Shown: positions 17,664-47,851 of the stretch, piece by piece
How the letters are laid out: the number at the start of each line of letters is the position of its first letter
Position numbering within the stretch: position 1 is the stretch's first letter
Assembly (NCBI GenBank): GCA_963700785.1
Contig: CAVOYZ010000010.1
Coordinates: forward strand, 14,870-78,869
Source: an uncultured Solirubrobacterales bacterium
Lineage (GTDB): Bacteria > Actinomycetota > Thermoleophilia > Solirubrobacterales > 70-9
Direction: 5' to 3'
DNA length: 64,000 nt
Made by a program: the position numbers and the translations under genes
Notes under the pieces: model-generated
Told to the model about the DNA's origin: nothing
Seen by the model: only the letters and a program-made list of their open reading frames with translations
The model's database searches: none

Positions 17664-17942
17664 ATGTGCTTGGCGATACCGGGCCAGGTTCTCGAGATGG
17701 TCGACGAGGAGAACCGGCTCGCGAAGGTGGATGTGGCGGGTGTCCGCCGCAACGTCAACGTCGCCCTGCTCGACGCCGAGCCGGGCGGCGTCGCGGTCGG
17801 CGACTGGGTCTTGATTCACGTCGGCTTCGCGCTCTCGAAGGTCGATCAGGAGGAGGCCCTTGCGACGCTCGAGCTGCTCGAGGGCATGGGTGCCGCCTAC
17901 GAGGCCGAGCTGGACGAGCTCAAGGGCAGCGTGATCGAGTGA
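17664..17942 (+). CDS. hypC: Hydrogenase maturation chaperone HypC/HupF
   Basis: 92 aa beginning MCLAIPGQV (essential Cys2); ...GDWVLIHVGFAL. Confidence 0.9.
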   Translation: MCLAIPGQVLEMVDEENRLAKVDVAGVRRNVNVALLDAEPGGVAVGDWVLIHVGFALSKVDQEEALATLELLEGMGAAYEAELDELKGSVIE

Positions 17943-17991
17943 GGTCGCTGCGACGACGGGCGCGATCGGGAAGCCGGAGGGGGCGGCGCCG

Positions 17992-18228
17992 GTGAGCCGT
18001 TCGCTCGATGACCGCTGCATCACCTGCGGCGACGTGGCTACGCCTCGTGAGGTCGTTGCCGTCGACGAAGCCCGGTGTCTGGCTCTCTGCCGGGACGAAC
18101 GCGACCATCGGGAGACGGTCGAGATCGGGCTGGTGCTGCCGGTCGCGCCCGGCGACCGGCTCCTGGTGCACGCGGGCACCGCGCTCGGCCACGTCCCCTC
18201 CGGCTCCGGCGGAGATCGGGCCGGATGA
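17992..18228 (+). CDS. HypC-family-like protein, atypical (no Met-Cys start; internal CITCGD)
   Basis: 78 aa, MSRSLDDRCITCGDVATPREVVAVDE...VEIGLVLPVAPGDRLLVHAGTAL parallels the HypC fold pattern (...V.L.LV....GD.VLVH.G.A). GTG start; stop overlaps the hypD ATG. Confidence 0.6.
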   Translation: MSRSLDDRCITCGDVATPREVVAVDEARCLALCRDERDHRETVEIGLVLPVAPGDRLLVHAGTALGHVPSGSGGDRAG

Positions 18229-19343
18229 TGCGCTTCGTCGATGAGTTCCGTGATCCCGAGCTGGGACGGGCCTTGACCGCCGAGATCCTCGAGCGGGTCG
18301 ACCCCGACCGCGAGTACAAGCTGATGGAGGTCTGCGGCGGCCACACCCACTCGATCTACAAGTACGGCATCGATGACCTGCTGCCGGAGAACGTCGAGTT
18401 GGTGCACGGCCCCGGCTGCCCGGTTTGCGTGATCCCGATGGGGCGGGTCGATGACGGGATCGCGATCGCCCGCAACGAGGAGGTGATCTTCACCTGCTTC
18501 GGCGACATGATGCGGGTGCCGGGGTCCGAGCAGAGCTTCGCCGACGCCAAGGCCGAGGGCGCCGACATCCGCATGGTCTACTCACCGCTCGACGCGCTGC
18601 GGATCGCGACGTCCAACCCCGACCGCACCGTCGTCTTCTTCGCGATCGGCTTCGAGACGACCGCGCCGTCGACGGCGCTGACGCTGAAGCGGGCCAAGGC
18701 GGAGGGCGTGGACAACTTCCTCTGCGTCTGCAACCACGTGACGATCGTGCCGCCGCTGCGCGCTCTGCTCGACTCCCCCGACCTCCGCCTCGACGGCTTC
18801 ATCGGACCGGGGCACGTCTCGACCGTCGTCGGCGTCCGCCCGTTCGAGTTCATCCCCGACCGGTACGGCAAGCCGCTGGTCACCTGCGGCTTCGAGCCGC
18901 TCGACATCCTTCAGGGAATCCGGATGATCCTCGCCCAGCTCGAGCAGGGTCGCTGCGAGGTCGAGAACCAGTACAGCCGGGTGGTCCCCTACGACGGGAA
19001 TCCGGCCGCGCTCGCCGTGCTGGCCGAGGTGTTCGAGCTGCGACCGCACTTCGAGTGGCGCGGCCTCGGCTTCATCAGCCAGAGCGCGCTGAAGCTCTCC
19101 GACGCGTACGCGGACTTCGATGCCGAACAGCGGTACGCGACGCCCGGCGTCCGCGTGGCTGACCCGAAGGCCTGCCAATGCGGCGAGGTGCTGAAGGGCG
19201 TGATCAAGCCCTGGGAGTGCAAGGTGTTCGGGACCGCCTGCACGCCCGAGCACGCGATCGGCACCTGCATGGTCTCGCCCGAGGGAGCCTGCGCCGCCTA
19301 CTACAACTACGGCCGCTACAGGCGTGAGCGCGAGGTGGTCTGA
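18225..19343 (+). CDS. hypD: Hydrogenase maturation protein HypD
   Basis: MMRFVDEFRDPE...MEVCGGHTHSIYKYG...HGPGCPVCV...GFETTAPS...; the upstream part of track ORF 18075-19343 is Arg/Pro-rich noise. Confidence 0.95.
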   Translation: MMRFVDEFRDPELGRALTAEILERVDPDREYKLMEVCGGHTHSIYKYGIDDLLPENVELVHGPGCPVCVIPMGRVDDGIAIARNEEVIFTCFGDMMRVPGSEQSFADAKAEGADIRMVYSPLDALRIATSNPDRTVVFFAIGFETTAPSTALTLKRAKAEGVDNFLCVCNHVTIVPPLRALLDSPDLRLDGFIGPGHVSTVVGVRPFEFIPDRYGKPLVTCGFEPLDILQGIRMILAQLEQGRCEVENQYSRVVPYDGNPAALAVLAEVFELRPHFEWRGLGFISQSALKLSDAYADFDAEQRYATPGVRVADPKACQCGEVLKGVIKPWECKVFGTACTPEHAIGTCMVSPEGACAAYYNYGRYRREREVV

Positions 19344-20449
19344 TGGCGGCTCGGAGCGACGCATCGCTGAGCGACCGCGAGCAACGGATTCTCGAGATCA
19401 TCGAGACCACGCGCGCCAAGCGCCCGAGGCTGAAGGGCGAGCGCGTGAACATGGCGCACGGGGCCGGCGGCAAGGCCACCCAGACGCTGATCGAGGGGCT
19501 GCTCGTCCCCGCTTTCGACCCACGGGCGTCCGGGCTCGCCGAGCTTGGCGACGCAGGGGTCGTGACGATCGCGGGCTCGGGGATCGCAATCACGACCGAC
19601 AGCTTCGTCGTCAAGCCGATCCGCTTTCCGGGCGGCTCGATCGGAGAGCTGGCGGTGAACGGCACGGTCAACGATCTCGCCGTTGCGGGGGCCCGGCCGG
19701 CGGCGATCAGCGTCGCGATGATCCTCGAGGAAGGGCTGCCGTTCGACGTCCTCGGGGAGGAGGTCGAGGCGGTCGCCCTGGCCGCGAACGAGGCGGGCGT
19801 CGAGATCGTCGCCGGCGATACCAAGGTGGTCGAGCGGGGGCACGCCGACGGGCTCTACATCACGACCACCGGGGTAGGTCTCGTCGATCCCCGGGCAGCG
19901 CTGAGCCCGGCCGCGATCAGGCCGGGCGATCAGGTGCTCGTCAGCGGTCCGATCGGCGAGCACGGCACCGCGATCATGCTCGCCCGCGACGAGTTTCAGC
20001 TCGACGCCGAGATCGAGTCCGACACGCAACCGCTCTGGGCGGCGGCTGACGCGCTGCTCGAGGCGACCGGAGCCGACCTGCGCTGCATGCGCGACGCGAC
20101 CCGCGGGGGCGTGGCGACGGTTCTCAACGAGCTCGCCCGGGCGAGCGGCGTCGCGATCGTCGCCAGGGAGAGCGATGTTCCGGTCAGCCCCGCGGTCGCG
20201 GGCGCCGCGGAGATCCTCGGGATCGATCCGATGTACGTCGCCAACGAGGGCCGCCTGGTCGCGTTCGTCGCGCCGGAGTCCGCCGACGCGGCACTCGAGG
20301 CTCTGCGATCGGTCCCGGGCTCGGAGCGCAGCGCCTCGATCGGCGAGGTGCGCAGCGAGCCGCCCGGCATGGTCCTGGTCGACACCGCCTTCGGCGGCAC
20401 CCGCGTCATGGACCTGCTGGCGGGCGATCCGCTGCCGAGGATCTGCTGA
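19343..20449 (+). CDS. hypE: Hydrogenase maturation protein HypE (carbamoyl dehydratase)
   Basis: 368 aa, NMAHGAGGKATQ..., AIR-synthase-like fold pattern, C-terminal PLPRIC motif. ATG overlaps the hypD stop; about 30 extra N-terminal residues relative to the HGxGG start I expect. Confidence 0.95.
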   Translation: MAARSDASLSDREQRILEIIETTRAKRPRLKGERVNMAHGAGGKATQTLIEGLLVPAFDPRASGLAELGDAGVVTIAGSGIAITTDSFVVKPIRFPGGSIGELAVNGTVNDLAVAGARPAAISVAMILEEGLPFDVLGEEVEAVALAANEAGVEIVAGDTKVVERGHADGLYITTTGVGLVDPRAALSPAAIRPGDQVLVSGPIGEHGTAIMLARDEFQLDAEIESDTQPLWAAADALLEATGADLRCMRDATRGGVATVLNELARASGVAIVARESDVPVSPAVAGAAEILGIDPMYVANEGRLVAFVAPESADAALEALRSVPGSERSASIGEVRSEPPGMVLVDTAFGGTRVMDLLAGDPLPRIC

Positions 20450-20473
20450 TCATGGTCACCGCGGTTGACGCCC

Positions 20474-20911
20474 ATGCATGAGCTCTCGGTCTCTTCGGCG
20501 ATCGTCGAGACGGTGATCCGTCACGCAGAAGGCCGGCGGGTCAACACGGTCCACCTGCAGGTCGGCACGCTGCGCCAGGTCGTTCCCGAGTCGCTCGACT
20601 TCTACTTCGCCGTCGCCAGCCGCGACACGCTCTGCGAGGGGGCGGAGCTGGACGTGGATCTGGTCGATGCGCTGATGCGCTGCAGGCAGTGCGGATGCGA
20701 GTGGGACCCGGCCCCAGAGCCGCTGCACTCCGGTGATCCCGCGGCGGCGCTGCCACGGTTCCGGTGCCCGGCCTGCGAGTCGGCGGGAGCCGAGGTGCTC
20801 GCCGGAAACGACCTGCTGATCGACTCGATCGACGTCGAGACCCAACCCGCCGTCGCCGGCAACGGCAGCTCCAACGGCCGCGATCCGCGCGATCTGCTGA
20901 AGGGCAGGTAG
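20474..20911 (+). CDS. hypA: Hydrogenase nickel-insertion protein HypA
   Basis: Begins MHELSV (the N-terminal MHE nickel motif requires ATG 20474, not the TTG at 20465). Zinc site CRQCG...CPACES. Confidence 0.9.
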   Translation: MHELSVSSAIVETVIRHAEGRRVNTVHLQVGTLRQVVPESLDFYFAVASRDTLCEGAELDVDLVDALMRCRQCGCEWDPAPEPLHSGDPAAALPRFRCPACESAGAEVLAGNDLLIDSIDVETQPAVAGNGSSNGRDPRDLLKGR

Positions 20912-20918
20912 CTGCAGC

Positions 20919-21599
20919 ATGCACCAGACCAAGGTCAAGGTCGCCGAGGACGCGCTCGACGCGAACACCACGATCGCGACCGCCAATCGGGCTGATTTCG
21001 ACCGCGCCGGCGTCGCGGTCGTCAACCTGATGAGCGCCCCGGGGGCGGGCAAGACGATGTTGCTGGAGCGCGCCCTGGCGGAGCGCGGCGATCTGCGCGT
21101 CGGGGTTCTCGAGGGAGACGTGCAGGGCTCGATCGACGCGGACCGGCTCTCCGCCCTGCATGTGCCGGTCGTTCAGATCAACACCGACTCCGGCTTCGGC
21201 GGCGAGTGCCACCTCGACGCCAACATGGTTCGCTCGGCCCTCGCCGAGCTGAGGCTCGGCGAGCTCGACCTGCTGGTCGTCGAGAACGTCGGCAACCTCG
21301 TCTGCCCGGCCGAGTTCCGGATCGGCGAGGACGCGAAGGCGATGATCTGCTCGGTCACCGAGGGGGAGGACAAGCCGCTCAAGTACCCGCTGATGTTCCG
21401 TTCCTGCGAGCTGGTGGTGATCAACAAGACGGATCTGCTTCCACATCTCGACTACGACGTCGACGCGCTGCTTGCCAACATCGACCGGGTCAACCCGGAG
21501 GCGGTCGTGATGCAGCTCAGCGCCCGCACCGGGGAGGGGGTCGATCGCTTTCGGGAGTGGCTGTTCGGCATCGCCGATCGGGCGCCGGCCGGGGGCTAG
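20919..21599 (+). CDS. hypB: Hydrogenase nickel-incorporation GTPase HypB
   Basis: 226 aa, P-loop SAPGAGKT, ENVGNLVCPA, INKTDL. No His-rich stretch or N-terminal CxxCGC motif. Confidence 0.93.
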   Translation: MHQTKVKVAEDALDANTTIATANRADFDRAGVAVVNLMSAPGAGKTMLLERALAERGDLRVGVLEGDVQGSIDADRLSALHVPVVQINTDSGFGGECHLDANMVRSALAELRLGELDLLVVENVGNLVCPAEFRIGEDAKAMICSVTEGEDKPLKYPLMFRSCELVVINKTDLLPHLDYDVDALLANIDRVNPEAVVMQLSARTGEGVDRFREWLFGIADRAPAGG

Positions 21600-21608
21600 G
21601 GGGAGCGG

Positions 21609-22874
21609 GTGGAGCTCGCCGGCGCGACGGGCCGGGACCAGCTGGCGCCGTGGCTGGAGCGGGCGCTTGCCGCGCGGCGCGAGGCCGGCTCGACGATGTT
21701 CGAGCGCGAGTCGCCACGGATCGCCCGCTGCTGCCACCGAATGGCCCAGCGCTTCGCGAGCGGCGGCCGGCTGATCTCGCTCGGCGCGGATCCCGCCGCC
21801 CGCTCCGACGCTCGTCACGTCTCGGTCGAGTTCGTGCATCCGGTGATCGTCGGCAAGCGGGCGTTGCCCGCCACCGCGCTGACGGGCGAGGGTGGCCCGC
21901 TCACGGCGCAGCTCGAGGCGGTCGTCGGTCGCGACGACATCGTGATCGGCTTCGGGCTCGGCGCCGGTGGTGCCGCCGCCGGGGAGACCGCGGAGGCGTT
22001 GGCGGCCGCTGCCGGTCATGGCTGCATGACGATCGCCTTCGGCCCCGGAGGGCCCGTCGACGGGGACGGTCACTGGCTGTTCGAGCCGCCGAGCGCGGAT
22101 CCGGCGATTCGCCAGGAGCTGGTCGAGACCCTCTACCACGTCCTCTGGGAGCTGGTTCACGTCTTCTTCGAGCACCGCGGACTGCTGGCGGGACCCGGCG
22201 ATCAGCCGTCCGCTCGGAGCCCGGCCGGCTTTCTCTACCCGTTCCTGGAGGGTGGTGAGGCCGATCTCGACGCGGTGCTCTCAGACGTGTCCGCCTCGGT
22301 GCGGATGAAGTCGGACGAGGTTGGGGAGCTGCGCGCCCAGACGTTGCGTGAGAACGCCGCCGAGCTGGCTTCCGCGGCCGAGACGCTCAGGGCCTGCTTC
22401 GAGGCCGGCGGGCGGGTGCTGGCCTTCGGCAACGGCGGCTCGGCGACGGATGCGATGGATCTCGTCGCCGACCTCCGCCTGCCCGAGGTCGCCGGATGGC
22501 GCTCCCGACCGGCGCTGGACCTCACCGAGGACACGGGAATCATCACCGCGGTCGCCAACGATGTCGGCGTTGCGGAGATCTTCCAGCGGCAGCTGATCGC
22601 ATCCGGGCGCGAGGGTGACGTGGCGGTCGCCTTCTCGACCAGCGGTGGCTCCGAGAACCTGATCGAGGGCCTCGCGGAGGCGCGACGAAGGCGGATCGGC
22701 ACGGTTGCGTTCGTCGGCTACGACGGCGGGCGAATCGTCGCCGATCGCCTCGCCGACGCGGTGATCATCAGCCGCTCTCAGCACATACCCCGGATCCAGG
22801 AGGCGCAGGCCAGCGCCTACCACCTGTTGCGGGAGCTGGTCGAGACGGCGGAGATGGGCGGGGCGCGGCAATGA
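21609..22874 (+). CDS. Tandem SIS-domain protein (degenerate N-terminal + intact GmhA/DiaA-like C-terminal domain) embedded in the hyp operon
   Basis: 421 aa. The C-half has GmhA-type motifs: GGRVLAFGNGGSATDAMDL, ANDVG...IFQRQ, STSGGSENL, VGYDGG, IPRIQEAQ. The N-half has the same spacing but altered motifs: GGRLISLGADPAARSDARH, GFGLGAGG. GTG start 9 nt after hypB; stop overlaps the hypF ATG. Confidence 0.8.
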   Translation: MELAGATGRDQLAPWLERALAARREAGSTMFERESPRIARCCHRMAQRFASGGRLISLGADPAARSDARHVSVEFVHPVIVGKRALPATALTGEGGPLTAQLEAVVGRDDIVIGFGLGAGGAAAGETAEALAAAAGHGCMTIAFGPGGPVDGDGHWLFEPPSADPAIRQELVETLYHVLWELVHVFFEHRGLLAGPGDQPSARSPAGFLYPFLEGGEADLDAVLSDVSASVRMKSDEVGELRAQTLRENAAELASAAETLRACFEAGGRVLAFGNGGSATDAMDLVADLRLPEVAGWRSRPALDLTEDTGIITAVANDVGVAEIFQRQLIASGREGDVAVAFSTSGGSENLIEGLAEARRRRIGTVAFVGYDGGRIVADRLADAVIISRSQHIPRIQEAQASAYHLLRELVETAEMGGARQ

Positions 22875-25213
22875 GCACCGCGCTCGAGAGCCGTCGGCGG
22901 GTCTGCGTCCGGGTCGAGGGCATCGTCCAGGGGGTCGGCTTCCGGCCCTACGTCCACAGGCTCGCCGGGGATCTCGACCTCGGCGGCTTCGTCCTCAACG
23001 ACGGGCGCGGGGTCCTGATCGAGGTCGAGGGCGATCGGCGCGCGGTCGAGAGCTTCCTCGAGCGGCTTCCGGCCGAGGCGCCGCCGCTCGCCCGCCTCGA
23101 GCGGATCGCGTCCGATCGGATCGCGCCCCGCGGCGAGGAGCGGTTCGCGATCGAGGCCAGCCGGGACACCGGGGCGGGCGACACCCAGATCAGTCCCGAC
23201 AACGCCACCTGCGCCGACTGCCTCTCGGAGCTGCGGGATCCCGCCGACCGGCGCTACCGCTATCCGTTCATCAACTGCACGAACTGCGGTCCCCGGTTCA
23301 CGATCGTCGCCGGCGTCCCATACGACCGGTCGCTGACGACGATGGCGGCGTTCGAGATGTGCCGGGCCTGCCGGGCCGAGTACGACGATCCCGATGATCG
23401 TCGCTTCCATGCCCAGCCCAACGCCTGCCCGGAGTGCGGACCGACGGTCCGGCTGCTCGATCCCTCGGGTGGCGAGGTGCACGAGCCGGGAGCCGACGCG
23501 GTGGCCGCGACCGGCCGGGCTCTGCGCTCCGGGCTGATCGTCGCGGTCAAGGGCATCGGCGGCTATCACCTCGCCTGCCGCGCCGACAGCGAGCCCGCCG
23601 TGGCGACGCTTCGCGCTCGCAAGCGGCGCGAGGAGAAGCCGTTCGCGGTGATGACGAGAAGCCTCGAGAGCGCCGCCTCCCTGATCGAGCTCAGCGAGGC
23701 GGAGCGGGCGCTGCTGGCCGGCCCCCAGCGGCCGATCGTGATCGCGCGGCGCCGGTCGGCCGCCTCGGTCGCCGCGTCGGTCGCCCCGGACAGCCCCGAC
23801 CTCGGCGTGATGCTCCCGTACTCGCCCCTGCACCACCTGCTGGCGGCGGACGCGGGGGTCGATCTGGTGATGACGTCCGGCAACGTGAGCGACGAGCCGA
23901 TCGCCTACGAGGATGACGAGGCGCTCGACCGGCTCGGTGCGATTGCCGATCGCCTCTGCGTTCACGATCGCAAGATCCACACTCGCACCGACGACTCCGT
24001 CGTCCGTGCGCTCGACCGGCGGCTGCGATCCGAGCCCCTGATCCTGCGCCGCTCCCGCGGCTGGGTCCCCGGCGCCCTCGACATGCCGAACGAGGCAGCC
24101 CGCCCGGTGCTGGCCTGCGGGGCTGAGCTGAAGAGCACCTTCTGCCTCGCGCGGGGGCGCCACGCCTGGGTCTCCCACCACATCGGCGATCTCAAGAACT
24201 TCGAGACCCTGACCTCGTTCCGCAGGGGGATCGAGCACTTCGAGGACCTCCTCGAGGTCGAGCCCTCGGTCGTCGCCCACGACATGCACCCCGACTACCT
24301 CTCGACCGCCTACGCCCTGGAGCGGGCGGGCGTCGAGCGCGTCGCCGTGCAGCACCACCACGCCCACCTCGCGGCGGTGCTCGCCGAGCACGGGTCCGAG
24401 GGCCCCGCGGTTGGGGCGATCTACGACGGCGTTGGATACGGGGCCGACGGCACGGCCTGGGGCGGCGAGCTGCTGGTCGGGGGCCTCGGCTCCTACGATC
24501 GCGCCGGGCTGCTGCTTCCGGTCCGCCTGCCCGGCGGCGACAAGGGCGCCCGCCAGCCCTGGCGGATGGCCTGCTCGTGGCTGGCCGCAGCCTTCGACGG
24601 AGCGCCGGAGCGGGCGCCTGAGCCGCTCGCCGGGCTCGTCGACCCCGGCGCCTGGGAGGCGGTCGCCGGGATCTGTCGGACCGGCCTGGCGTCGCCGCTG
24701 ACGACGAGCGCAGGCAGGCTGTTCGACGCGGTTGCCGCGCTCTGCGGGCTGCGGAGCGAGATCCACTACGAGGGGCAGGCCGCGATCGAGCTCGAAGCCG
24801 CCGCCGCTGCCGATCCGGTCGATCAGCAGCCGTATCCGATGCCGCTGCTCGACCAGCGTCCCGGACCGATCGTGATCGACGCCCGGCCGACGGTTCGCGC
24901 GATCGTCGCCGACCTGGATCGCGAGACCGTGCCCACGATCGCGGCCCGCTTCCACGCGGCGATCGCCACCGCCACCGCAGAGGCCTTGGGCCGGCTGGCG
25001 GAGCGACAAGGGCTCTCTGATGTCGTGCTTTCCGGTGGCGTCTTCCAGAACCGGCTGCTGCTCGAGGGTGTGGTCCCCGCTCTGTCGGCCCGCGGGCTGC
25101 GGCCGCTGCTGCCGCTGCGACTGCCGGCCAACGATGCGGCGATCGCCTACGGGCAGGCGGCGATCGCCGCCCATGCCGCGACCCCGATCGGCGCAGGCCC
25201 GGTGGCGCGGTGA
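22871..25213 (+). CDS. hypF: Carbamoyltransferase HypF
   Basis: 780 aa: acylphosphatase-like N-terminus (VRVEGIVQGVGFRPYV), two zinc-finger pairs (CADC...CTNCGPRF; CRAC...CPECGP), YrdC-like and Kae1-like domains. Confidence 0.97.
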   Translation: MSTALESRRRVCVRVEGIVQGVGFRPYVHRLAGDLDLGGFVLNDGRGVLIEVEGDRRAVESFLERLPAEAPPLARLERIASDRIAPRGEERFAIEASRDTGAGDTQISPDNATCADCLSELRDPADRRYRYPFINCTNCGPRFTIVAGVPYDRSLTTMAAFEMCRACRAEYDDPDDRRFHAQPNACPECGPTVRLLDPSGGEVHEPGADAVAATGRALRSGLIVAVKGIGGYHLACRADSEPAVATLRARKRREEKPFAVMTRSLESAASLIELSEAERALLAGPQRPIVIARRRSAASVAASVAPDSPDLGVMLPYSPLHHLLAADAGVDLVMTSGNVSDEPIAYEDDEALDRLGAIADRLCVHDRKIHTRTDDSVVRALDRRLRSEPLILRRSRGWVPGALDMPNEAARPVLACGAELKSTFCLARGRHAWVSHHIGDLKNFETLTSFRRGIEHFEDLLEVEPSVVAHDMHPDYLSTAYALERAGVERVAVQHHHAHLAAVLAEHGSEGPAVGAIYDGVGYGADGTAWGGELLVGGLGSYDRAGLLLPVRLPGGDKGARQPWRMACSWLAAAFDGAPERAPEPLAGLVDPGAWEAVAGICRTGLASPLTTSAGRLFDAVAALCGLRSEIHYEGQAAIELEAAAAADPVDQQPYPMPLLDQRPGPIVIDARPTVRAIVADLDRETVPTIAARFHAAIATATAEALGRLAERQGLSDVVLSGGVFQNRLLLEGVVPALSARGLRPLLPLRLPANDAAIAYGQAAIAAHAATPIGAGPVAR

Positions 25214-35253: not shown

Positions 35254-36507
35254 GTGAGCGAGGTCGTAAAGCTCGATCCGGCCGCCCGTCGCGCGGCGGG
35301 GTCGCGCCGGAAGAGGCAGTCGAAAACTGCTCTCGTGCTCGGCGGTGGCGGGTTCACCGGCGCCGTCTACGAGATCGGCGCCTTGCGCGCCTTCGACCTG
35401 TTGGCCGTCAACCGGACCGTCAACGAGTTCGACGTCTACGTCGGCACCAGCGCCGGGTCCTTCGTCGCGGCGGCGGTCGCCAACGGCGTTACCCCGGAGG
35501 AGATGATGCGGGTCCTGAACAAGAACCTGCCCTCGCCGCTCCGCGACATGGATCTCAACATGCTGCTGCGACCGAACTACCGGGGCTTCGTCGAATCGGC
35601 TGCGCTGCTGCCCTTCCGGCTGCTCGGCGTTGCCCGGCAGGTCGCCTCGACGATCGGTGACGTCTCGGTGATGGACGTCGCTCAGGGTCTGGCCGCCGGA
35701 CTGCCGAAAGGGCTCTACCGGGGGAACGGGATCGAGGACTACGTGGCCGAGATGCTCGCCGATCCGGACCGGACCGACGACTTCCGGATGCTCGAGCGCG
35801 AGCTGTACCTGACGGCGACCGACCTCGACACCACCGATCGGGTGGTGCTCGGCGACGGCGAGTGGCGCGACATCCCGATCTCGCTCGCGGTTGCGGCCTC
35901 GACGGCGTTGCCGCTGGTCTATGAGCCGGTCGAGATCAAGGGCAGGGAGATGGTCGACGGCGGCATCCGCTCGACGACCAACGTCGACATCGCCGTCGAG
36001 AACGGGGCCAAGTTCATCGTCGTCGTCAATCCGATCGTCCCCTTCGTCAATGACTTCGGCAAGCGGGTCCCGACGATCCTCGGCTCGCGCGTGCGGCGCG
36101 TCTCCGACATGGGCTTCGTCGCGATCGCCAACCAGGCGCTGCGGATGATCGCCCACGACCGCCTGCACCGCGCCGTCCAGGAGTGGGAGATCCGCTACCC
36201 CGGAGTCGACATCCTGCTGATCGAGCCGGAGTTCGACGACGAGCTGATGTTCGGGACCTCGATCATGGATTACGCGGCCCGCCTGCAGATCGCCAAGCAC
36301 GGCTTCGAGTCCGTCACCCTGCGCCTCGCCCGCGAGTACGAGCGCTACAAGGCGATCGCCGAGCGCCACGGGATCGAGATCTCGGCACGCCGGATCCGGC
36401 ACGTGCTCGACCAGGTTGAGCGCGAGCGCGACCAGGCCCCCGCCTGGCGCCGCGTCTTCGAGCAGACGACCAGCGCCCTGATGGGTCAGGGCAACGACGC
36501 CGGCTAG
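35254..36507 (+). CDS. Patatin-like phospholipase
   Basis: 417 aa, oxyanion GGGGFTG and nucleophile elbow GTSAGS, DGG near the C-terminal part of the catalytic domain. Confidence 0.85.
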   Translation: MSEVVKLDPAARRAAGSRRKRQSKTALVLGGGGFTGAVYEIGALRAFDLLAVNRTVNEFDVYVGTSAGSFVAAAVANGVTPEEMMRVLNKNLPSPLRDMDLNMLLRPNYRGFVESAALLPFRLLGVARQVASTIGDVSVMDVAQGLAAGLPKGLYRGNGIEDYVAEMLADPDRTDDFRMLERELYLTATDLDTTDRVVLGDGEWRDIPISLAVAASTALPLVYEPVEIKGREMVDGGIRSTTNVDIAVENGAKFIVVVNPIVPFVNDFGKRVPTILGSRVRRVSDMGFVAIANQALRMIAHDRLHRAVQEWEIRYPGVDILLIEPEFDDELMFGTSIMDYAARLQIAKHGFESVTLRLAREYERYKAIAERHGIEISARRIRHVLDQVERERDQAPAWRRVFEQTTSALMGQGNDAG

Positions 36508-37007
36508 GCGCTGACGACGATCGTCAGCTTCATCACCGTTCGGTGCACGGAGCAGACGAACCTGTAGGTGCCGGGCCGCTTCAGCCTGCGGCTGAACCTG
36601 AGGCCGATCGAGCCGGTTCCCGACTTGAAGTTTCGCTTGCGGACCTTCGGCGGCGCCTTGCGGAGAGTCACGTCGTGGACGTGCAGGTTCCCCGGCAGCC
36701 AGCGCCACTTGACCCTCGCGCAGCGCTCGACCGCGACCCGCCGCGGCGCGAAGAAGTCGTCACCGATCCGCACCCGGACGATTTCGTTTGATGTGCACTT
36801 GTGCTGGCCCGCCGCCCGCGGCGCGATCGAGCCGTCGCCGTCGCTGCCGATCGGGGCCACCGCGAACAGCGCGGTCGTCCCGATCAGGGTCGCGAGCGCG
36901 ACCCTGAGCCGTCTCCCTCGTCTCACCCGGAATCCGATTCCCCGCTCCCACATCCTGCCGTCGACGGGCATGTTGTCCTTTGTCAGCGAGATCCAGGGCT
37001 CGCTCAT
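36504..37007 (-). CDS. Secreted cupredoxin-like (type-1 copper) protein, Arg-rich paralog
   Basis: 167 aa. DDFFAP...VKWRWLPGNLHVHDVTL...GTYRFVCSVHRTVM gives His...Cys-x2-His-x3-Met ligand spacing. Start overlaps the stop of the upstream gene by 4 nt. Confidence 0.75.
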   Translation of the reverse strand: MSEPWISLTKDNMPVDGRMWERGIGFRVRRGRRLRVALATLIGTTALFAVAPIGSDGDGSIAPRAAGQHKCTSNEIVRVRIGDDFFAPRRVAVERCARVKWRWLPGNLHVHDVTLRKAPPKVRKRNFKSGTGSIGLRFSRRLKRPGTYRFVCSVHRTVMKLTIVVSA

Positions 37008-37744
37008 CGGGCGCGGTTCTTGGCGCGAGCGATCCGGAAGCGCAGCTTGAACGGGCGGGTCGCGTTAGCGGACCTGTCGATCGCCCTGACCTTGGCCAGG
37101 TAGCGGCCCGTGCGGGCCGGGAAGTTCGTTCGCTTGATCCCGAACCGGAGCCCGTTGGCGCCGATGTGGCCGCCCTTGTAGCGTGCGTATCCGGCGAAGC
37201 GCCGGCCGCCCCCGCGCTTGTCCCGCAGGTACTCGATCTCGATCCGGGCCCGCTCATTGATCGAGTACTTCATCGAGGTCCCCTTACGGCGAACGGTGCT
37301 GCTCCCGAGGCGGAGGTCGCGGAGGTTCGGGGGCTCGAGGTCCACCTGGCTGCGGGGGATCGGGTCCGGTTCGGTCACCGGGTCGCCGGGGGTCGACGAG
37401 ACGGTCACCGTGCCTCTGACGGTCGAGTGCAGCTTGCAGCGGAAGCTGTAGACCCCGGGCTCGTCGAAGTCGAGCCTGAAGCTGTCGCCGATCCTGTGCT
37501 GCGGCTGGTTGGTCTGCGGATCGGAGTCGAGCCCCGCCGAATCGGGCGAGTCACCGGTGATCGAGTGCATCGTGTCGGGCCCGATCCAGTACCAGCTGAC
37601 GTGCTCGCCGCGGTCGATCGCAAAGTCCATGTCCGACCAGGCGTAGTTGCTGATCGAGATCCGCCGGTTCTCGGCGGAGGCCGCCGCCGGCACCAGCAGC
37701 GCCCCGACCGCAAGCACGGGAAGCAGGCGCAGCAGCCGGCTCAC
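37004..37744 (-). CDS. Secreted cupredoxin-like domain + Ig-like C-terminal domain protein
   Basis: 246 aa, signal peptide MSRLLRLLPVLAVGALLVPAAASA. GEHVSWYWIGPDTMHSITG...GVYSFRCKLHSTVRGTVTV has Cys-x2-His but Arg where the paralogs have the axial Met. C-terminal ...GRYLAKVRAIDRSANATRPFKLRF. Confidence 0.65.
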   Translation of the reverse strand: MSRLLRLLPVLAVGALLVPAAASAENRRISISNYAWSDMDFAIDRGEHVSWYWIGPDTMHSITGDSPDSAGLDSDPQTNQPQHRIGDSFRLDFDEPGVYSFRCKLHSTVRGTVTVSSTPGDPVTEPDPIPRSQVDLEPPNLRDLRLGSSTVRRKGTSMKYSINERARIEIEYLRDKRGGGRRFAGYARYKGGHIGANGLRFGIKRTNFPARTGRYLAKVRAIDRSANATRPFKLRFRIARAKNRAR

Positions 37745-38787
37745 TCGACGATGTACCAGCCGGTCATCCCCTGGTGGAGATGGCTGAACACGTGGCAGTG
37801 GTAGAGCCAGCGACCGGGGTTGTCCTCGACGTACTCGGCGCTGATCGTGTCGCCGGGTCCGAGGGTGACGTTGTCGACCATCTTGCCGCGGTCGTTCCAG
37901 CGGCGCCCGTGGATGTGGAAGGTGTGGAACTCATTGTCGATGCCGTAGACGTGCCAGGCGACGCGCTCGCCGACGCGGGCCCGGTAGTTCTCCGTGTTGC
38001 CCGTGTAGGCACGGCCGTTCATGCACCAGAACGCCTGGTTGAGGCCGGTGGCGACCGGCTGGAACGAGTGGAAGGCGACGAAGAACTCCTTGTCCGGCGG
38101 GGTCGCGCCCTTCTCGCGGATGATGATCGGCCCGAACAGGCCCTTGTAGACGGGCACCGGGTCGAGCGGCCCGTGGTCGTGGTAGAACCAGGCGCCGACC
38201 GTCTCCGGGGTCGCCTCCCAGACGTACTGATAGGTCTCGCCCTGCTGGACGAAACCGCCGGGGTCGGTGTACTTGCCCTTGTAGGCCCCGTCCATCTCGA
38301 TCGAGTACTGGACGCCGTGCGGGTGGATCGTGACCGGCGAGCTCAGCGTGTTCTGGAAGTTGACGACGATCGTGTCGCCGACCTCCGCCTCGATCAGCGG
38401 GCCCGGGATCTTCGCCTTGCCGATCGGGCTCGCGAAGCCCGGGGTGTAGGCGCGGTATCCGAACGCCGTGAACTTGGTCTTGCCCTTGACCTTCTTGCCG
38501 AGCATCTGATCGCGGCCCTTGGGAACGATGTTCCAGCGCCGCTGCTCGGCCTTGATCCAGTACTCGCGCCGCTTGCCGCCGGACGCGGTGAACACCGCCG
38601 GCGCCGCGGACGCGGCGCCTGAGGCGCTCGCGGCCCGCACCTTGGGCGGGACCTCGATCTCCCGCGCCAACTCCTCGACGTCCGCCTCCCGGTCGTTGCG
38701 GATCTGCTGACCGCCGAGCGTGCAGAGCAGCAGGCCGCCGCCGCCCGCCGCGAGGAACTGACGTCGATCTACCGGGGGCCCGGCCAT
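37741..38787 (-). CDS. Two-domain multicopper oxidase (small-laccase type), TAT-exported
   Basis: 348 aa, twin-arginine signal DRRQFLAAGG. All four MCO copper motifs are present: HPHG, WFYHDHG, HTFHIHG, HCHVFSHLHQGM. Confidence 0.9.
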   Translation of the reverse strand: MAGPPVDRRQFLAAGGGGLLLCTLGGQQIRNDREADVEELAREIEVPPKVRAASASGAASAAPAVFTASGGKRREYWIKAEQRRWNIVPKGRDQMLGKKVKGKTKFTAFGYRAYTPGFASPIGKAKIPGPLIEAEVGDTIVVNFQNTLSSPVTIHPHGVQYSIEMDGAYKGKYTDPGGFVQQGETYQYVWEATPETVGAWFYHDHGPLDPVPVYKGLFGPIIIREKGATPPDKEFFVAFHSFQPVATGLNQAFWCMNGRAYTGNTENYRARVGERVAWHVYGIDNEFHTFHIHGRRWNDRGKMVDNVTLGPGDTISAEYVEDNPGRWLYHCHVFSHLHQGMTGWYIVE

Positions 38788-38791
38788 CGGC

Positions 38792-39211
38792 CTACTTCTT
38801 GACCGTGATCGTCTGCGTCATCGTGGTCCGGTGGATCGTGCAGACGAACTTGTACTTGCCGGTCTTCTCCAGCTTGCGGTTGAACTTGATCCCGATCGAG
38901 CCGGTGGCCGACTTGAAGTCCTTCTTCTTGACCTTCTTCGGACCGCTGGTCAGCGTCACGTTGTGCGGGTTCAGGTTCTCGGGAAGCCAGTTCCACTTCA
39001 CCTTCGTGCACTTCTTGACGCTCGTCTTCGCGGGTGCGAAGAAGTCGTCGGCGACGTCGATCTTCTTTTTCTTCTTCGACTTCTTGCACTTGCTCTTGCC
39101 GGCGATGTCGGCCGTCGGACCGGGGGCGGCGCTGCCAACCGGGGCGACCACGACCATCGCGAGCGCCGCGACCAGGGCCACAAGCACCCCGCGTGTTGCT
39201 GTCTTGCTCAT
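38792..39211 (-). CDS. Secreted cupredoxin-like (type-1 copper) protein, Lys-rich paralog
   Basis: 139 aa. Collinear with 36504-37007: DDFFAP..VKKCTKVKWNWLPENLNPHNVTL..FKSATGSIGIKF..GKYKFVCTIHRTTM. By my count 28 Lys / 3 Arg, versus 9 Lys / 25 Arg in the paralog. Confidence 0.75.
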   Translation of the reverse strand: MSKTATRGVLVALVAALAMVVVAPVGSAAPGPTADIAGKSKCKKSKKKKKIDVADDFFAPAKTSVKKCTKVKWNWLPENLNPHNVTLTSGPKKVKKKDFKSATGSIGIKFNRKLEKTGKYKFVCTIHRTTMTQTITVKK

Positions 39212-39233
39212 AGCTGCTTTCTCCTTGTTCTGA

Positions 39234-40586
39234 TCAGGGGCAGTCCGGGCCGGGCGTCAGCTCGTACGGCTTGAAGTCCTCGAACGGCGGGTGCGGGTGC
39301 TCCGTCCATGAGCACTGCTGCGTCTCGAACGGGTTCGAGGTCACGTAGCCGAGCAGGTCGCCGAGCTGCTGGTCGGGGTCGCCGAGGCTGGCGCCTGTTC
39401 CGGCTGCCGGCGGCGCCGGCGCCGGGCAGGTCGGGTAGAGGAACGCGTCCGTCGCCGAGCTGCTCGGATCGAACGTCGAGCTGCTGTTGCCGGCGTAGCA
39501 GTTACCGCTGCCCGAGCCGTCGCTGAAGTAGTCGACCGCGTTCGTGTCGGTTCCACCGCGACCGTTCGTGTTGTTGGTCATCGTGTTGTCGGTCGAGATC
39601 GCATCGTCGCCGTCGTTGAAGGGGTCCGAGAAGACCGCGGTGCCCCACTTGAAGTTGCCGAAGATCTCGTTGTCCTTGACGACGGTGTTGTCGGTCCCGA
39701 ACAGCAGCACCCCGACGCCGGTCGGGTAGTTGATCGGGTTGCCCCCGACCTCGCCGAGGCCGCCGGTGCCGACGGTGCCGACCGGCGAGTTCGGCAGGAA
39801 GTAGTTGAAGTTGTTCCAGAAGATGTAGTTGTCCCGGATGACGCTGTCGCCGGCCGGCTCGTAGGGCTCGACGTCGAGCGTGTTCGGGGCGATCCCGGCT
39901 CCGTTGTTATAGAAATAGGAGTCCTTGATCGTCACGTAGTGGGAGTTCGTCCCCGAGAAGCCGAGCACGTTCTTGTAGCTCTCCAGCTTCTTCAGGACGT
40001 TCTTCTTCGGGTTCTTGTTCTGAACCGGCGTCGCGCCGACGTAGTAGCCGGAGTCGCCGTGGCCCCAGGCCTCCGACTTGCTCATCTCGCCGCCCTTGCA
40101 GTCGAAGGCGTAGAGCCCGTAGGAGCGGTTGAACTTCGCCCGCAGGTTGCTCATCGTGTAGTTCTTGCAGTCGTGGTAGAAGAACCCGTTGGTCGCGTAG
40201 TTCTGCGCGGTCATGTTCTTGACCGTCACGTTCTTGGCGCCGATCACCTCGACGCCGTTCTGCGCCAGTCCGTTCTCGTTCTTGGCGTTCTTGCCCTCGA
40301 GGACGACCTTCTTCGCGTTCTTCTTCGTGCCCTTGATCGTCAGGCCGTTGTACTTGGACCCGTCGACGATCACGCCCTCCTTGTAGGTCCCGGGCTTGAC
40401 CTTGACCGTCGCATTCTTCTTGCCCTTGAGCTTGTCGACCGCCTTCTGGATCTTCTTCTGGTCACAGCCGAACTTGCAGACGGTGAGCGTCTTGTTCTTC
40501 TTCTTGGCTGCGGCGGTGGCCGGCAGCGCGACGGTCAGCCCCGCCAGGGCGAACATCGTGCAGGCGACGATCAGAAACCTCTTCAT
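39234..40586 (-). CDS. Secreted right-handed parallel beta-helix repeat protein (NosD-like)
   Basis: 450 aa, signal peptide MKRFLIVACTMFALAGLTVALPATAAA. Repeated beta-helix rungs (NGVEVIGAKNVTVKNMT, SHYVTIKDSYFYNNGAGI, SVIRDNYIFWNN, NTVVKDNEIFGN). Lys/Asn-rich. Confidence 0.75.
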   Translation of the reverse strand: MKRFLIVACTMFALAGLTVALPATAAAKKKNKTLTVCKFGCDQKKIQKAVDKLKGKKNATVKVKPGTYKEGVIVDGSKYNGLTIKGTKKNAKKVVLEGKNAKNENGLAQNGVEVIGAKNVTVKNMTAQNYATNGFFYHDCKNYTMSNLRAKFNRSYGLYAFDCKGGEMSKSEAWGHGDSGYYVGATPVQNKNPKKNVLKKLESYKNVLGFSGTNSHYVTIKDSYFYNNGAGIAPNTLDVEPYEPAGDSVIRDNYIFWNNFNYFLPNSPVGTVGTGGLGEVGGNPINYPTGVGVLLFGTDNTVVKDNEIFGNFKWGTAVFSDPFNDGDDAISTDNTMTNNTNGRGGTDTNAVDYFSDGSGSGNCYAGNSSSTFDPSSSATDAFLYPTCPAPAPPAAGTGASLGDPDQQLGDLLGYVTSNPFETQQCSWTEHPHPPFEDFKPYELTPGPDCP

Positions 40587-40706
40587 GAAAATCCAAACCT
40601 CGATCGGTGTCGTGTTTCCGATCCCCGCGGGACCGATTGCTTTCCCCCCAACGCTAAGACCCGCAACCTACCACGGCGACGAAAGTTGCGGTCCCCGCCG
40701 AACCGC

Positions 40707-47617: not shown

Positions 47618-47661
47618 GCCTCGTTCCCGGATCGCTGATGCCTGCCATACTCCCGCCACCT

Positions 47662-47735
47662 CGGGGCGTGGCGCAGCCTGGTAGCGCGCACCGTTCGGGT
47701 CGGTGAGGTCCCCGGTTCGAATCCGGGCGCCCCGA
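47662..47735 (+). tRNA. tRNA-Pro (anticodon CGG), CCA not encoded
   Basis: Hand-folded cloverleaf: acceptor CGGGGCG/CGCCCCG, D stem GCGC/GCGC, anticodon stem CACCG/CGGTG with loop TTCGGGT, T stem CCCGG/CCGGG with loop TTCGAAT, discriminator A; 74 nt. Confidence 0.95.
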
Positions 47736-47851
47736 TTGCCTTCACCTCGCGGCCCGCGCGGAGGAACCGGTGGGCGACGACCCGGCCGGTGTAGATTTCC
47801 ATCAGCCGCGCAAACGGCGAACGGAACACACCCGCCACAGAAGGAGACAGC

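Follow-up and report, generated by a model that had tools for sequence, protein, structure and literature searches.

The window analyzed here, a stretch of 64,000 nt of DNA from an uncultured Solirubrobacterales bacterium (contig CAVOYZ010000010.1), a soil actinobacterium of the class Thermoleophilia, carries on its minus strand five genes (g1 to g5) for exported proteins. An initial annotation had read them as a five-gene operon for a NosD-like beta-helix protein, three cupredoxin-like proteins and a two-domain laccase. All five minus-strand open reading frames (ORFs) were found exactly at the coordinates given there, and searches with hidden Markov models (HMMs) led to the same family assignments. 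The genes are indeed a tightly packed, co-directional set, but the conserved unit consists of only four of them, encoding a beta-helix protein, a cupredoxin, a multicopper oxidase (MCO) and a cupredoxin fused to an immunoglobulin (Ig)-like domain, in that order; g5 is an orphan. This cassette is probably an uncharacterized cell-surface oxidase system. The genes and associated features are as follows:

g1, 39234-40586, minus strand, 450 aa: predicted secreted right-handed parallel beta-helix protein
g2, 38792-39211, minus strand, 139 aa: predicted secreted, very basic type-1 (T1) cupredoxin, putative partner of g1
g3, 37741-38787, minus strand, 348 aa: predicted type-B two-domain MCO with a twin-arginine translocation (TAT) signal
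g4, 37004-37744, minus strand, 246 aa: predicted secreted protein with a cupredoxin domain, a Pro-rich linker and a beta-sandwich resembling Ig or fibronectin type III (FN3) domains
g5, 36504-36926, minus strand, ∼140 aa when read from GTG 36926: second predicted g2-type T1 cupredoxin, the orphan partner of a second beta-helix gene (BH2) that was lost
BH2 relic, 36930-36988, minus strand, 59 nt: blastn match to the interior of the deleted second beta-helix gene
Intergenic region upstream of g1, 40587-40706, minus strand, 120 nt: presumed promoter or leader region

Signal peptides, judged by eye, were of the Sec type on g1, g2, g4 and g5 and of the TAT type on g3. Between the longest ORFs, the junctions g1/g2, g2/g3, g3/g4 and g4/g5 measure 22, 4, −4 and −4 nt. 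These values, reported before, follow directly from the ORF coordinates, but the last one is an artefact of choosing the longest ORF for g5 (see below).

Conservation of the gene unit

The g1 family alignment was scanned against one genome per GTDB species, which yielded 345 relatives; from these, the 79 best loci were analyzed. Except for one Acidobacteriota bin and one Acidimicrobiia genome, these 79 loci were from Thermoleophilia or from unclassified actinobacterial metagenome-assembled genomes (MAGs), the closest relatives being MAGs labeled Solirubrobacterales or Conexibacteraceae (class Thermoleophilia). The genes for the beta-helix protein, the cupredoxin, the MCO and the cupredoxin-Ig protein were contiguous, on one strand and in that order in 74 of the 79 species-level genomes, and this order held down to 45% identity of the beta-helix protein. 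The five exceptions comprised two contig truncations, one frameshifted MCO gene, one locus without a cupredoxin gene between a second beta-helix gene and the MCO gene, and one locus without an MCO gene. Additional copies mostly occurred as beta-helix/cupredoxin pairs. The neighborhood is thus conserved, and the conserved unit is the four-gene set beta-helix/cupredoxin/MCO/cupredoxin-Ig, which upholds the view that these genes form a dedicated set of exported copper proteins.

If the cassette were no functional unit, its members would be unrelated secreted proteins placed side by side by chance. Against this stand the retention of the four-gene order although the flanking genes differ, the independent fusions of some of these genes (see below) and the selection acting on them: a comparison of the window with the two relatives nearest to it gave ratios of nonsynonymous to synonymous substitution rates (dN/dS) of 0.10 to 0.31, which places each of the five genes under purifying selection. 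Conservation and gene fusions together effectively refute chance adjacency, which we regard as very improbable.

No conserved flanking genes were found at the 79 loci beyond clade-specific synteny. Copper-homeostasis, ABC transporter and cytochrome c genes as regular companions had to be dismissed, being essentially absent from 77 related loci. There, neither NosF, NosY or NosL nor CopA, CopZ, CopC or CopD was systematically nearby, motifs of ABC-type ATPases lay within 3 kb in only two of the 77, motifs of copper homeostasis (P1B ATPase, MxCxxC) were rare, and no Cop partner was among the recurrent flank genes. For the window itself, the reported lack of an ABC transporter, NosZ, CopC/D and a P-type ATPase was confirmed, since a motif scan revealed no ABC ATPase or copper ATPase and the gene list contained nothing resembling NosZ or NosL. 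At 13 to 15 of the 79 related loci, the genes immediately downstream of the cassette, on its strand (e.g., 13672-13962 in L029 and 5796-6578 in L017), are tatA, at a distance of ∼70 nt, and tatC, after which comes a conserved gene for a membrane protein of 257 aa that has no match in Pfam; neither tatA nor tatC was seen in the window. Genes for a Rieske protein and cytochrome b were present ∼5 kb upstream at 12 to 13 loci (e.g., 3485-5085 in L014), with a dCTP-deaminase-like gene in between, a neighborhood that probably reflects clade synteny, not a functional link.

The encoded proteins

For g3, Pfam domains Cu-oxidase_3 (residues 126-226) and Cu-oxidase_2 (residues 247-347) were each matched at ∼1e-19. 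The four copper motifs (HPHG, HDHG, HTFHIHG and HCHVFSHLHQGM) and the twin arginine of the TAT signal, both described in the initial annotation, are conserved to at least 90% across 66 orthologues. Cys, His and Met of the T1 site are located in the C-terminal domain (C-x4-H-x4-M), and no Cys-containing T1 motif was found in domain 1. The best single-stretch matches in the PDB were two-domain laccases of the SLAC type (∼1e-33, 232 residues aligned); repeats of ceruloplasmin and factor V also matched, including residues 68-115 of g3. From these features, g3 is predicted to be a type-B two-domain MCO, a class whose physiological role and natural electron donors are poorly understood (PMC13151041). 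Its dN/dS was ∼0.10, no Met- or His-rich segment was visible in its sequence, and against the CopA/PcoA model TIGR01480 it scored 65.5 bits, with a cut-off of 479.

The Copper-bind family (PF00127; cut-off, 21.2 bits) was matched by both g2 (1.3e-10, 42.0 bits) and g5 (1.1e-5, 26.1 bits). The g2 ligands H83, C124, H127 and M131, with the C-x2-H-x3-M loop, are conserved, the loop being kept in 79 of 85 g2-type family members; the corresponding region of g5 reads H...C-S-V-H-R-T-V-M. The His...Cys-x2-His-x3-Met pattern that had been noticed in two small paralogs is therefore real, and both g2 and g5 are classified, by their ligand sets, as plastocyanin/azurin-type T1 cupredoxins with putative copper sites. 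The DDFFAP motif preceding this pattern, which had been called unusual, is, according to the alignment, the form taken in this family by the [FY]-x-P that plastocyanin-type cupredoxins ordinarily have in their first strand; of its residues, D55 and P59 alone reach a conservation of at least 90%. Mature g2 is strongly basic (isoelectric point [pI] 10.3, net charge +22), and its start codon is preceded, 8 nt upstream, by the Shine-Dalgarno sequence AAGGAG. At least 59 single-domain homologues of g2 were retrieved, and its best sequence match in the PDB was the purple cupredoxin of Nitrosopumilus. In the cassette, the g2 gene always comes immediately after the beta-helix gene.

The origin of g5 became apparent from the closest relatives, L003 and L005, and from L007, a genome of 60% identity, where BH2 lies between g4 and the g5 orthologue. 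Within the window, positions 36988-36930 matched the interior of BH2 in blastn (80% and 75% identity in L005 and L003, respectively), and the segments flanking this relic matched the 3′ end of g4 and the region from the BH2 stop codon to g5. Translated, the relic (SLTKDNMPVDGRM) resembles BH2 (ALSKDNMFVNNKM). Because it is in frame with g5, it adds a spurious N-terminal extension of 27 codons to the longest g5 ORF (36504-37007, start at ATG 37007, 167 aa). In L005 and L003, the sequence of the g5 orthologues is V-RR.RRLRVAL from the counterpart of GTG 36926 onward; this codon is thus probably the start of g5, which would make the protein ∼140 aa long and place the gene ∼78 nt from g4. Consequently, the 4-nt overlap of g4 and g5 is an artefact of the longest ORF. 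As judged from these alignments, g5 is the leftover cupredoxin gene of a beta-helix/cupredoxin pair that had arisen by duplication and then lost its beta-helix gene by deletion. Purifying selection on it persists (dN/dS 0.23 compared with L005). In three long-read assemblies, frameshifts were observed in g5 (L003, 15066-15400) or in the MCO gene (L082, 9700-10720; L047, 11810-12857); they are more likely assembly indels than signs of pseudogenes, and gene calls from those MAGs therefore need care.

In g4, a match to Copper-bind was confined to the N-terminal half (1.2e-4, 22.9 bits vs the 21.2-bit cut-off). The structural model (predicted local distance difference test [pLDDT] score, 84.7) comprises an N-terminal domain resembling amicyanin and plastocyanin, a Pro-rich linker and a C-terminal Ig/FN3-like beta-sandwich, so that the third cupredoxin-like domain fused to an Ig-like domain, as proposed before, is supported by the model and, for its cupredoxin part, also by the HMM. 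Foldseek matched the cupredoxin domain to amicyanin, structurally the closest, and to plastocyanin (target-normalized template modeling [TM] score, ∼0.7). Invariant residues are H60, C103 and H106, as well as H48, H83, D73 and D75 (alignment A2). An axial Met, in contrast, was found in none of 77 orthologues: the position of the amicyanin Met is occupied by Val in all 77, and the next position, equivalent to the g2 Met, by Arg in 58 of them. By its residues, g4 is therefore classified as a Met-less cupredoxin variant, which may not be an ordinary electron carrier. Of the three dedicated electron carriers assumed in the initial annotation, g2 and g5 keep the His-Cys-His-Met set, but g4 does not. 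T1-like sites that lack Met can have an axial water; the Nitrosopumilus purple cupredoxin is an example (PMC12109610). The same protein was the highest-identity Foldseek match of g4 (29%). The two halves of g4 differ markedly in charge, the cupredoxin domain being acidic (pI 4.9) and the Ig-like domain polycationic (pI ∼12, net +25).

The Pfam families matched by g1 were Beta_helix (1.8e-11) and NosD (PF05048; 3.4e-6, 27.1 bits vs the 23.6-bit cut-off), and its score against TIGR03805 (beta_helix_1) was 51.6 bits, which is under the curated cut-off of 141.5 bits. At least 1472 homologues were found. The AlphaFold model (pLDDT 84) predicts a right-handed beta-helix, a fold common to the whole pectin-lyase-fold superfamily and not specific to NosD. 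The Sec-type signal peptide is followed by a Lys-rich mature N-terminus. Eight Cys residues are conserved (alignment A1) and look like four disulfides; in one fusion protein (P0263, see below) the equivalents of C140/C163 and of C425/C449 are absent two at a time, which suggests such bonds. A C-terminal subdomain bears a conserved W-x2-H-x-H-P motif, present only in the close subfamily, whereas Y156, D178, S211 and N228 are kept across the wider family.

Kinship of g1 with NosD was rejected. No match to the NosD family model TIGR04247 (cut-off, 300 bits) was obtained at E up to 0.1, NosD chains among the PDB sequences were matched neither by g1 alone nor by the family profile, and NosD was not among the top 50 Foldseek matches. 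Even the proteins of a sister subfamily (see below) reached only 32-39 bits on TIGR04247, and only with the N-terminal cap. Thus, the description of g1 as being of the kind known from NosD holds for the beta-helix fold, but the resemblance is only generic. This bears on the idea that the cassette serves copper handling, with the beta-helix protein as a NosD-like copper shuttle outside the cytoplasm and the cupredoxins binding or buffering copper, so as either to metallate the MCO once it is exported or to detoxify Cu(I), which the MCO would oxidize as a cuprous oxidase. There are MCOs that receive their copper only once TAT has exported them, CopI, a protein of the cupredoxin type, has a part in copper resistance, and Cop/Pco systems combine an MCO with cupredoxin-fold proteins. 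The Pfam NosD match above its cut-off, the conserved HxH motif in the C-terminal subdomain of g1 and the fact that every partner is a copper protein would agree with such a function. However, all NosD-specific tests failed, Nos or Cop genes were present neither systematically at the 77 related loci nor in the window, the MCO is devoid of visible Met- or His-rich segments, and the ligands of g2 constitute the classical buried T1 set for electron transfer, not a chaperone site. Moreover, beta-helix/cupredoxin pairs are common where there is no MCO to be loaded, which also weakens the earlier suggestion of a copper-loading system for the oxidase. We therefore consider copper handling unlikely.

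The structural neighbors of g1 in Foldseek were the mannuronan epimerase AlgE4, the lyase RbmB, tailspikes and pectin methylesterases (TM score 0.4-0.5, 10-16% identity). They would be in keeping with remodeling of the envelope or extracellular matrix, in which the beta-helix protein would be a lyase, epimerase or esterase with an anionic wall or an extracellular polysaccharide as its target, and the MCO and cupredoxins would oxidize or cross-link phenolic or Tyr groups of the same polymer. Streptomyces, for instance, couples glycan synthesis with copper oxidases (CslA/GlxA). Distant members of the g1 family contain CWB2 or RDD modules, and the polycationic g2 and the Ig-like domain of g4 would bind polyanions. 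Yet the fold similarity is only at the generic level of beta-helices, and the g1 family profile produced no significant match to solved carbohydrate-active enzymes, only two marginal ones to pectinesterases (E 0.02-0.03), restricted to the N-terminal cap. Conserved genes for glycosyltransferases or export are lacking near the cassette, and the fusion of a T1 electron carrier to the beta-helix in several lineages would be left unexplained. Envelope remodeling thus appears improbable.

The beta-helix/cupredoxin pair in other lineages

When 1.84 billion representative proteins were searched with the beta-helix family profile, 212 clusters (at 50% identity) were recovered with E up to 1e-30 and 2948 with E up to 1e-3. 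Four fusion proteins were identified, of the type beta-helix-cupredoxin (P0242 and P0263), cupredoxin-beta-helix-cupredoxin (P0345) and cupredoxin-beta-helix (P0360); in the former two it is a g2-type cupredoxin that is joined to the beta-helix. In all four the motifs of the T1 ligands are retained, whereas a signal peptide is missing from the internal cupredoxin. The gene for P0242 is followed by an MCO gene, which has a frameshift in this assembly, and by one resembling g4, that for P0263 comes after the gene for a 357-aa MCO, as seen in two independent assemblies, and that for P0345 overlaps the end of a gene for a 324-aa MCO. All three fusions whose context was checked (P0242, P0263 and P0345) thus adjoin a two-domain MCO, irrespective of the gene order, which differs between them. 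One distant family member had a cupredoxin gene upstream and no MCO gene; others occurred alone or with RDD (membrane) or CWB2 (cell-wall-binding) modules.

A sister subfamily of beta-helix proteins (32-36% identity to g1) matched TIGR03805 at 74-94 bits over nearly the full length of the profile. When metagenomes were scanned with its own alignment, at least 578 relatives were found, of which the best 80 loci (L090-L169) were evaluated, 65 of them informative. A cupredoxin gene, identified by HMM match, was located directly upstream on the same strand at 40 of the 65 informative loci, whereas an MCO gene was nearby at only one of the 80. Some 50 nt downstream (e.g., 1480-2415 in L132 and 6521-7828 in L100), there was a gene for a DUF1996 lipoprotein at 23 loci or for a di-haem oxidoreductase (PF06537) at 8. 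The upstream cupredoxin, the beta-helix protein and the DUF1996 or PF06537 protein form a second, uncharacterized three-gene redox module. These neighbors indicate that the beta-helix family habitually partners with redox proteins, and the MCO is, by this distribution, an extra component characteristic of the branch in Thermoleophilia and of some of the lineages with fusions.

A proposed redox chain, related systems and genomic setting

The fusions, the duplication of beta-helix and cupredoxin genes as pairs and the intact T1 ligands argue that the beta-helix protein operates together with the g2-type cupredoxin as a single unit, for which the recurrent two-domain MCO would be the natural oxidant, accepting electrons from reduced cupredoxin. 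We therefore favor, with about an even chance of being right as a whole, a copper redox module at the cell surface in which electrons would pass from the beta-helix protein via the cupredoxin(s) to the MCO and on to O2; the extracytoplasmic oxidation or electron-transfer module that the initial annotation had considered is, accordingly, preferred on the grounds of the four-gene order, the fusions and the intact T1 ligand sets. In this chain, the beta-helix protein would work physically with the basic T1 cupredoxin (g1 with g2), serving as a substrate-binding or catalytic platform that feeds in electrons. g2, and g5 as a spare cupredoxin from the lost second pair, would hand single electrons to the T1 site of g3, a putative trimeric two-domain MCO, which would reduce O2 to water. 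g4, the second cupredoxin of the conserved unit, might provide another entry point or relay through a three-ligand, Met-less copper site and be tethered to the anionic cell envelope by its polycationic Ig-like domain. Retention of the proteins on the envelope of a host that we assume to be monoderm would come from the positive charge of g2, this Ig-like domain and the N-terminus of g1 with its many Lys residues; the TAT signal on the MCO, the Sec-type signals on the other proteins and this charge fit a surface-retained complex. Also in favor of the module are the purifying selection on g1 to g5, the lack of systematic copper-homeostasis, ABC or Nos neighbors, the redox partners seen in the sister subfamily, and the tatA and tatC genes that come after the cassette at 13 to 15 loci. 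The substrate may be a metal ion, with Fe(II), Mn(II) and Cu(I) as candidates, or a phenolic on a polyanionic polymer. Elsewhere, cupredoxins, MCOs and di-haem oxidoreductases serve in extracytoplasmic reactions that oxidize metal ions by one electron. Since this applies to all recurrent partner classes, the three metal ions are reasonable first candidates, alongside polymer-bound phenolics.

Several observations weigh against this chain. The structural neighbors of g1 are carbohydrate-active enzymes, no recognizable redox cofactor site was found in the beta-helix, and the residues kept across the wider family (Y156, D178, S211 and N228) either resemble the ones found in hydrolases, lyases or epimerases or are structural. 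The HxH motif of g1 is restricted to the close subfamily, the cassette of L075 manages without an MCO, and the direction of electron flow is assumed. Finally, in type-B MCOs the T1 sites are turned toward a central tunnel, where a protein donor may have difficulty docking (PMC13151041).

A bolder version of the redox chain, to which we give only tentative credence, is that the TIGR03805-like beta-helix would be a new extracytoplasmic enzyme or substrate receptor with a dedicated, sometimes fused T1 cupredoxin, and that in Thermoleophilia and a few further lineages this pair would be wired to a terminal oxidase of its own, a type-B laccase. The substrate of the laccase would then be reduced cupredoxin rather than a phenol, and a small substrate would react at the Met-less g4, whose copper site would have open coordination or a high potential. 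That the beta-helix/cupredoxin pair constitutes a genuinely new type of enzyme system is, likewise, possible, though we rather doubt it.

Literature searches on the gene combination, on MCOs of Thermoleophilia and on TIGR03805/TIGR03806 returned no description, which is consistent with the earlier remark that this is not a recognized system. By their sequences, g3 is a new type-B two-domain MCO, g2 and g5 are new plastocyanin-type cupredoxins, and g1 is related to TIGR03805 but stands outside it. With the SLAC-type (type B) laccases of Streptomyces and relatives, g3 has in common the two cupredoxin domains, the four copper motifs, the C-terminal T1 site and the TAT signal, but it is accompanied by three or four dedicated partner genes, and its residues 68-115 align with ceruloplasmin and factor V rather than with SLAC; to our knowledge, SLAC has been studied as a stand-alone enzyme. 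Like NosD of the NosDFY-NosL system, g1 is a predicted extracytoplasmic beta-helix protein (matching PF05048) encoded beside copper proteins. Unlike NosD, it fails TIGR04247 and has a C-terminal Cys/His subdomain of its own, and its cassette contains no gene for NosF, NosY, NosL or NosZ. With CopA/PcoA the cassette shares an MCO and exported cupredoxin-fold proteins, but CopB, CopC, CopD, a Met-rich MCO region and nearby copper-efflux genes are lacking, and g3 failed TIGR01480.

Other systems resemble the proposed chain in its logic. In the case of methylamine dehydrogenase, a periplasmic enzyme passes electrons to amicyanin, encoded in the same cluster, and from there to cytochrome c551i. The cupredoxin domain of g4 is structurally closest to amicyanin; in the cassette, however, the proposed donor is a beta-helix without a known cofactor, and the acceptor would be an MCO instead of a cytochrome or respiratory oxidase. 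An MCO with small dedicated partners is also found in ncgABC-nirK of Nitrosomonas europaea, where NcgA is a type-C two-domain MCO and the c-type cytochromes NcgB and NcgC are its partners, and in MnxEFG of Bacillus, where MnxE and MnxF accompany the large multi-domain MCO MnxG. There, the partners are from other families, and a beta-helix component is absent. Proteins of the TIGR03805 family are presumably encoded in two-gene pairs with a di-haem c-type cytochrome family. Both g1 (51.6 bits) and the sister subfamily (74-94 bits) are related to them, yet remain under the 141.5-bit cut-off, and the partner in the cassette is a cupredoxin (plus MCO), not a cytochrome.

The cassette names concrete candidates for the natural partners of type-B two-domain laccases, a widespread class, and a beta-helix family of unassigned function gains a fusion-supported link to blue-copper electron transfer. 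Thermoleophilia are understood as abundant, little-cultured soil bacteria. If metals or polymer-bound phenolics are indeed oxidized at their surface, this would be relevant to soil redox chemistry and, possibly, to enzyme applications.

Upstream of the cassette and on the same strand, genes for an acyl-CoA synthetase and a Na+/H+ exchanger are found, with a gap of 120 nt between the exchanger gene and g1. A scan of this region for a sigma-70 consensus promoter was negative, and k-mer counts over 79 upstream regions revealed no motif common across loci beyond local synteny; a conserved operator or promoter motif 5′ of g1 was thus rejected. Downstream, the convergent gene for a patatin-like phospholipase (35254-36507, plus strand) is followed by an S13 peptidase gene. 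The stop codons of g5 and of the patatin gene lie in a 4-nt overlap (36504-36507), which leaves no room for a terminator between both transcription units. On the coding strand, no terminator-like sites were seen within the cluster. Seven matches of this kind, all on the plus strand, fall within, or antisense to, the Lys-rich coding region of g1 and g2, and we take them to be composition artefacts. Both genes are lower in G+C (63% and 60%, respectively) than the window (∼70%), and the products of both are very rich in Lys, apparently encoded by many AAG codons, which would explain a local dip in AT skew as well as the plus-strand matches.

Elsewhere, the window contains a ribosomal protein operon and superoxide dismutase, bio and hyp genes. 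A run of ORFs on the plus strand (17664-25213), identified by eye from N-terminal sequences only, resembles genes for [NiFe]-hydrogenase maturation in the order hypC-like (MCLAIPGQV...), hypD, hypE, hypA, hypB and a 780-aa hypF-like ORF. A tRNA-Pro (CGG; 47661-47736, plus strand) was the sole RNA match in the window with either Rfam or ARAGORN, and it alone reached the gathering score in the Rfam search.

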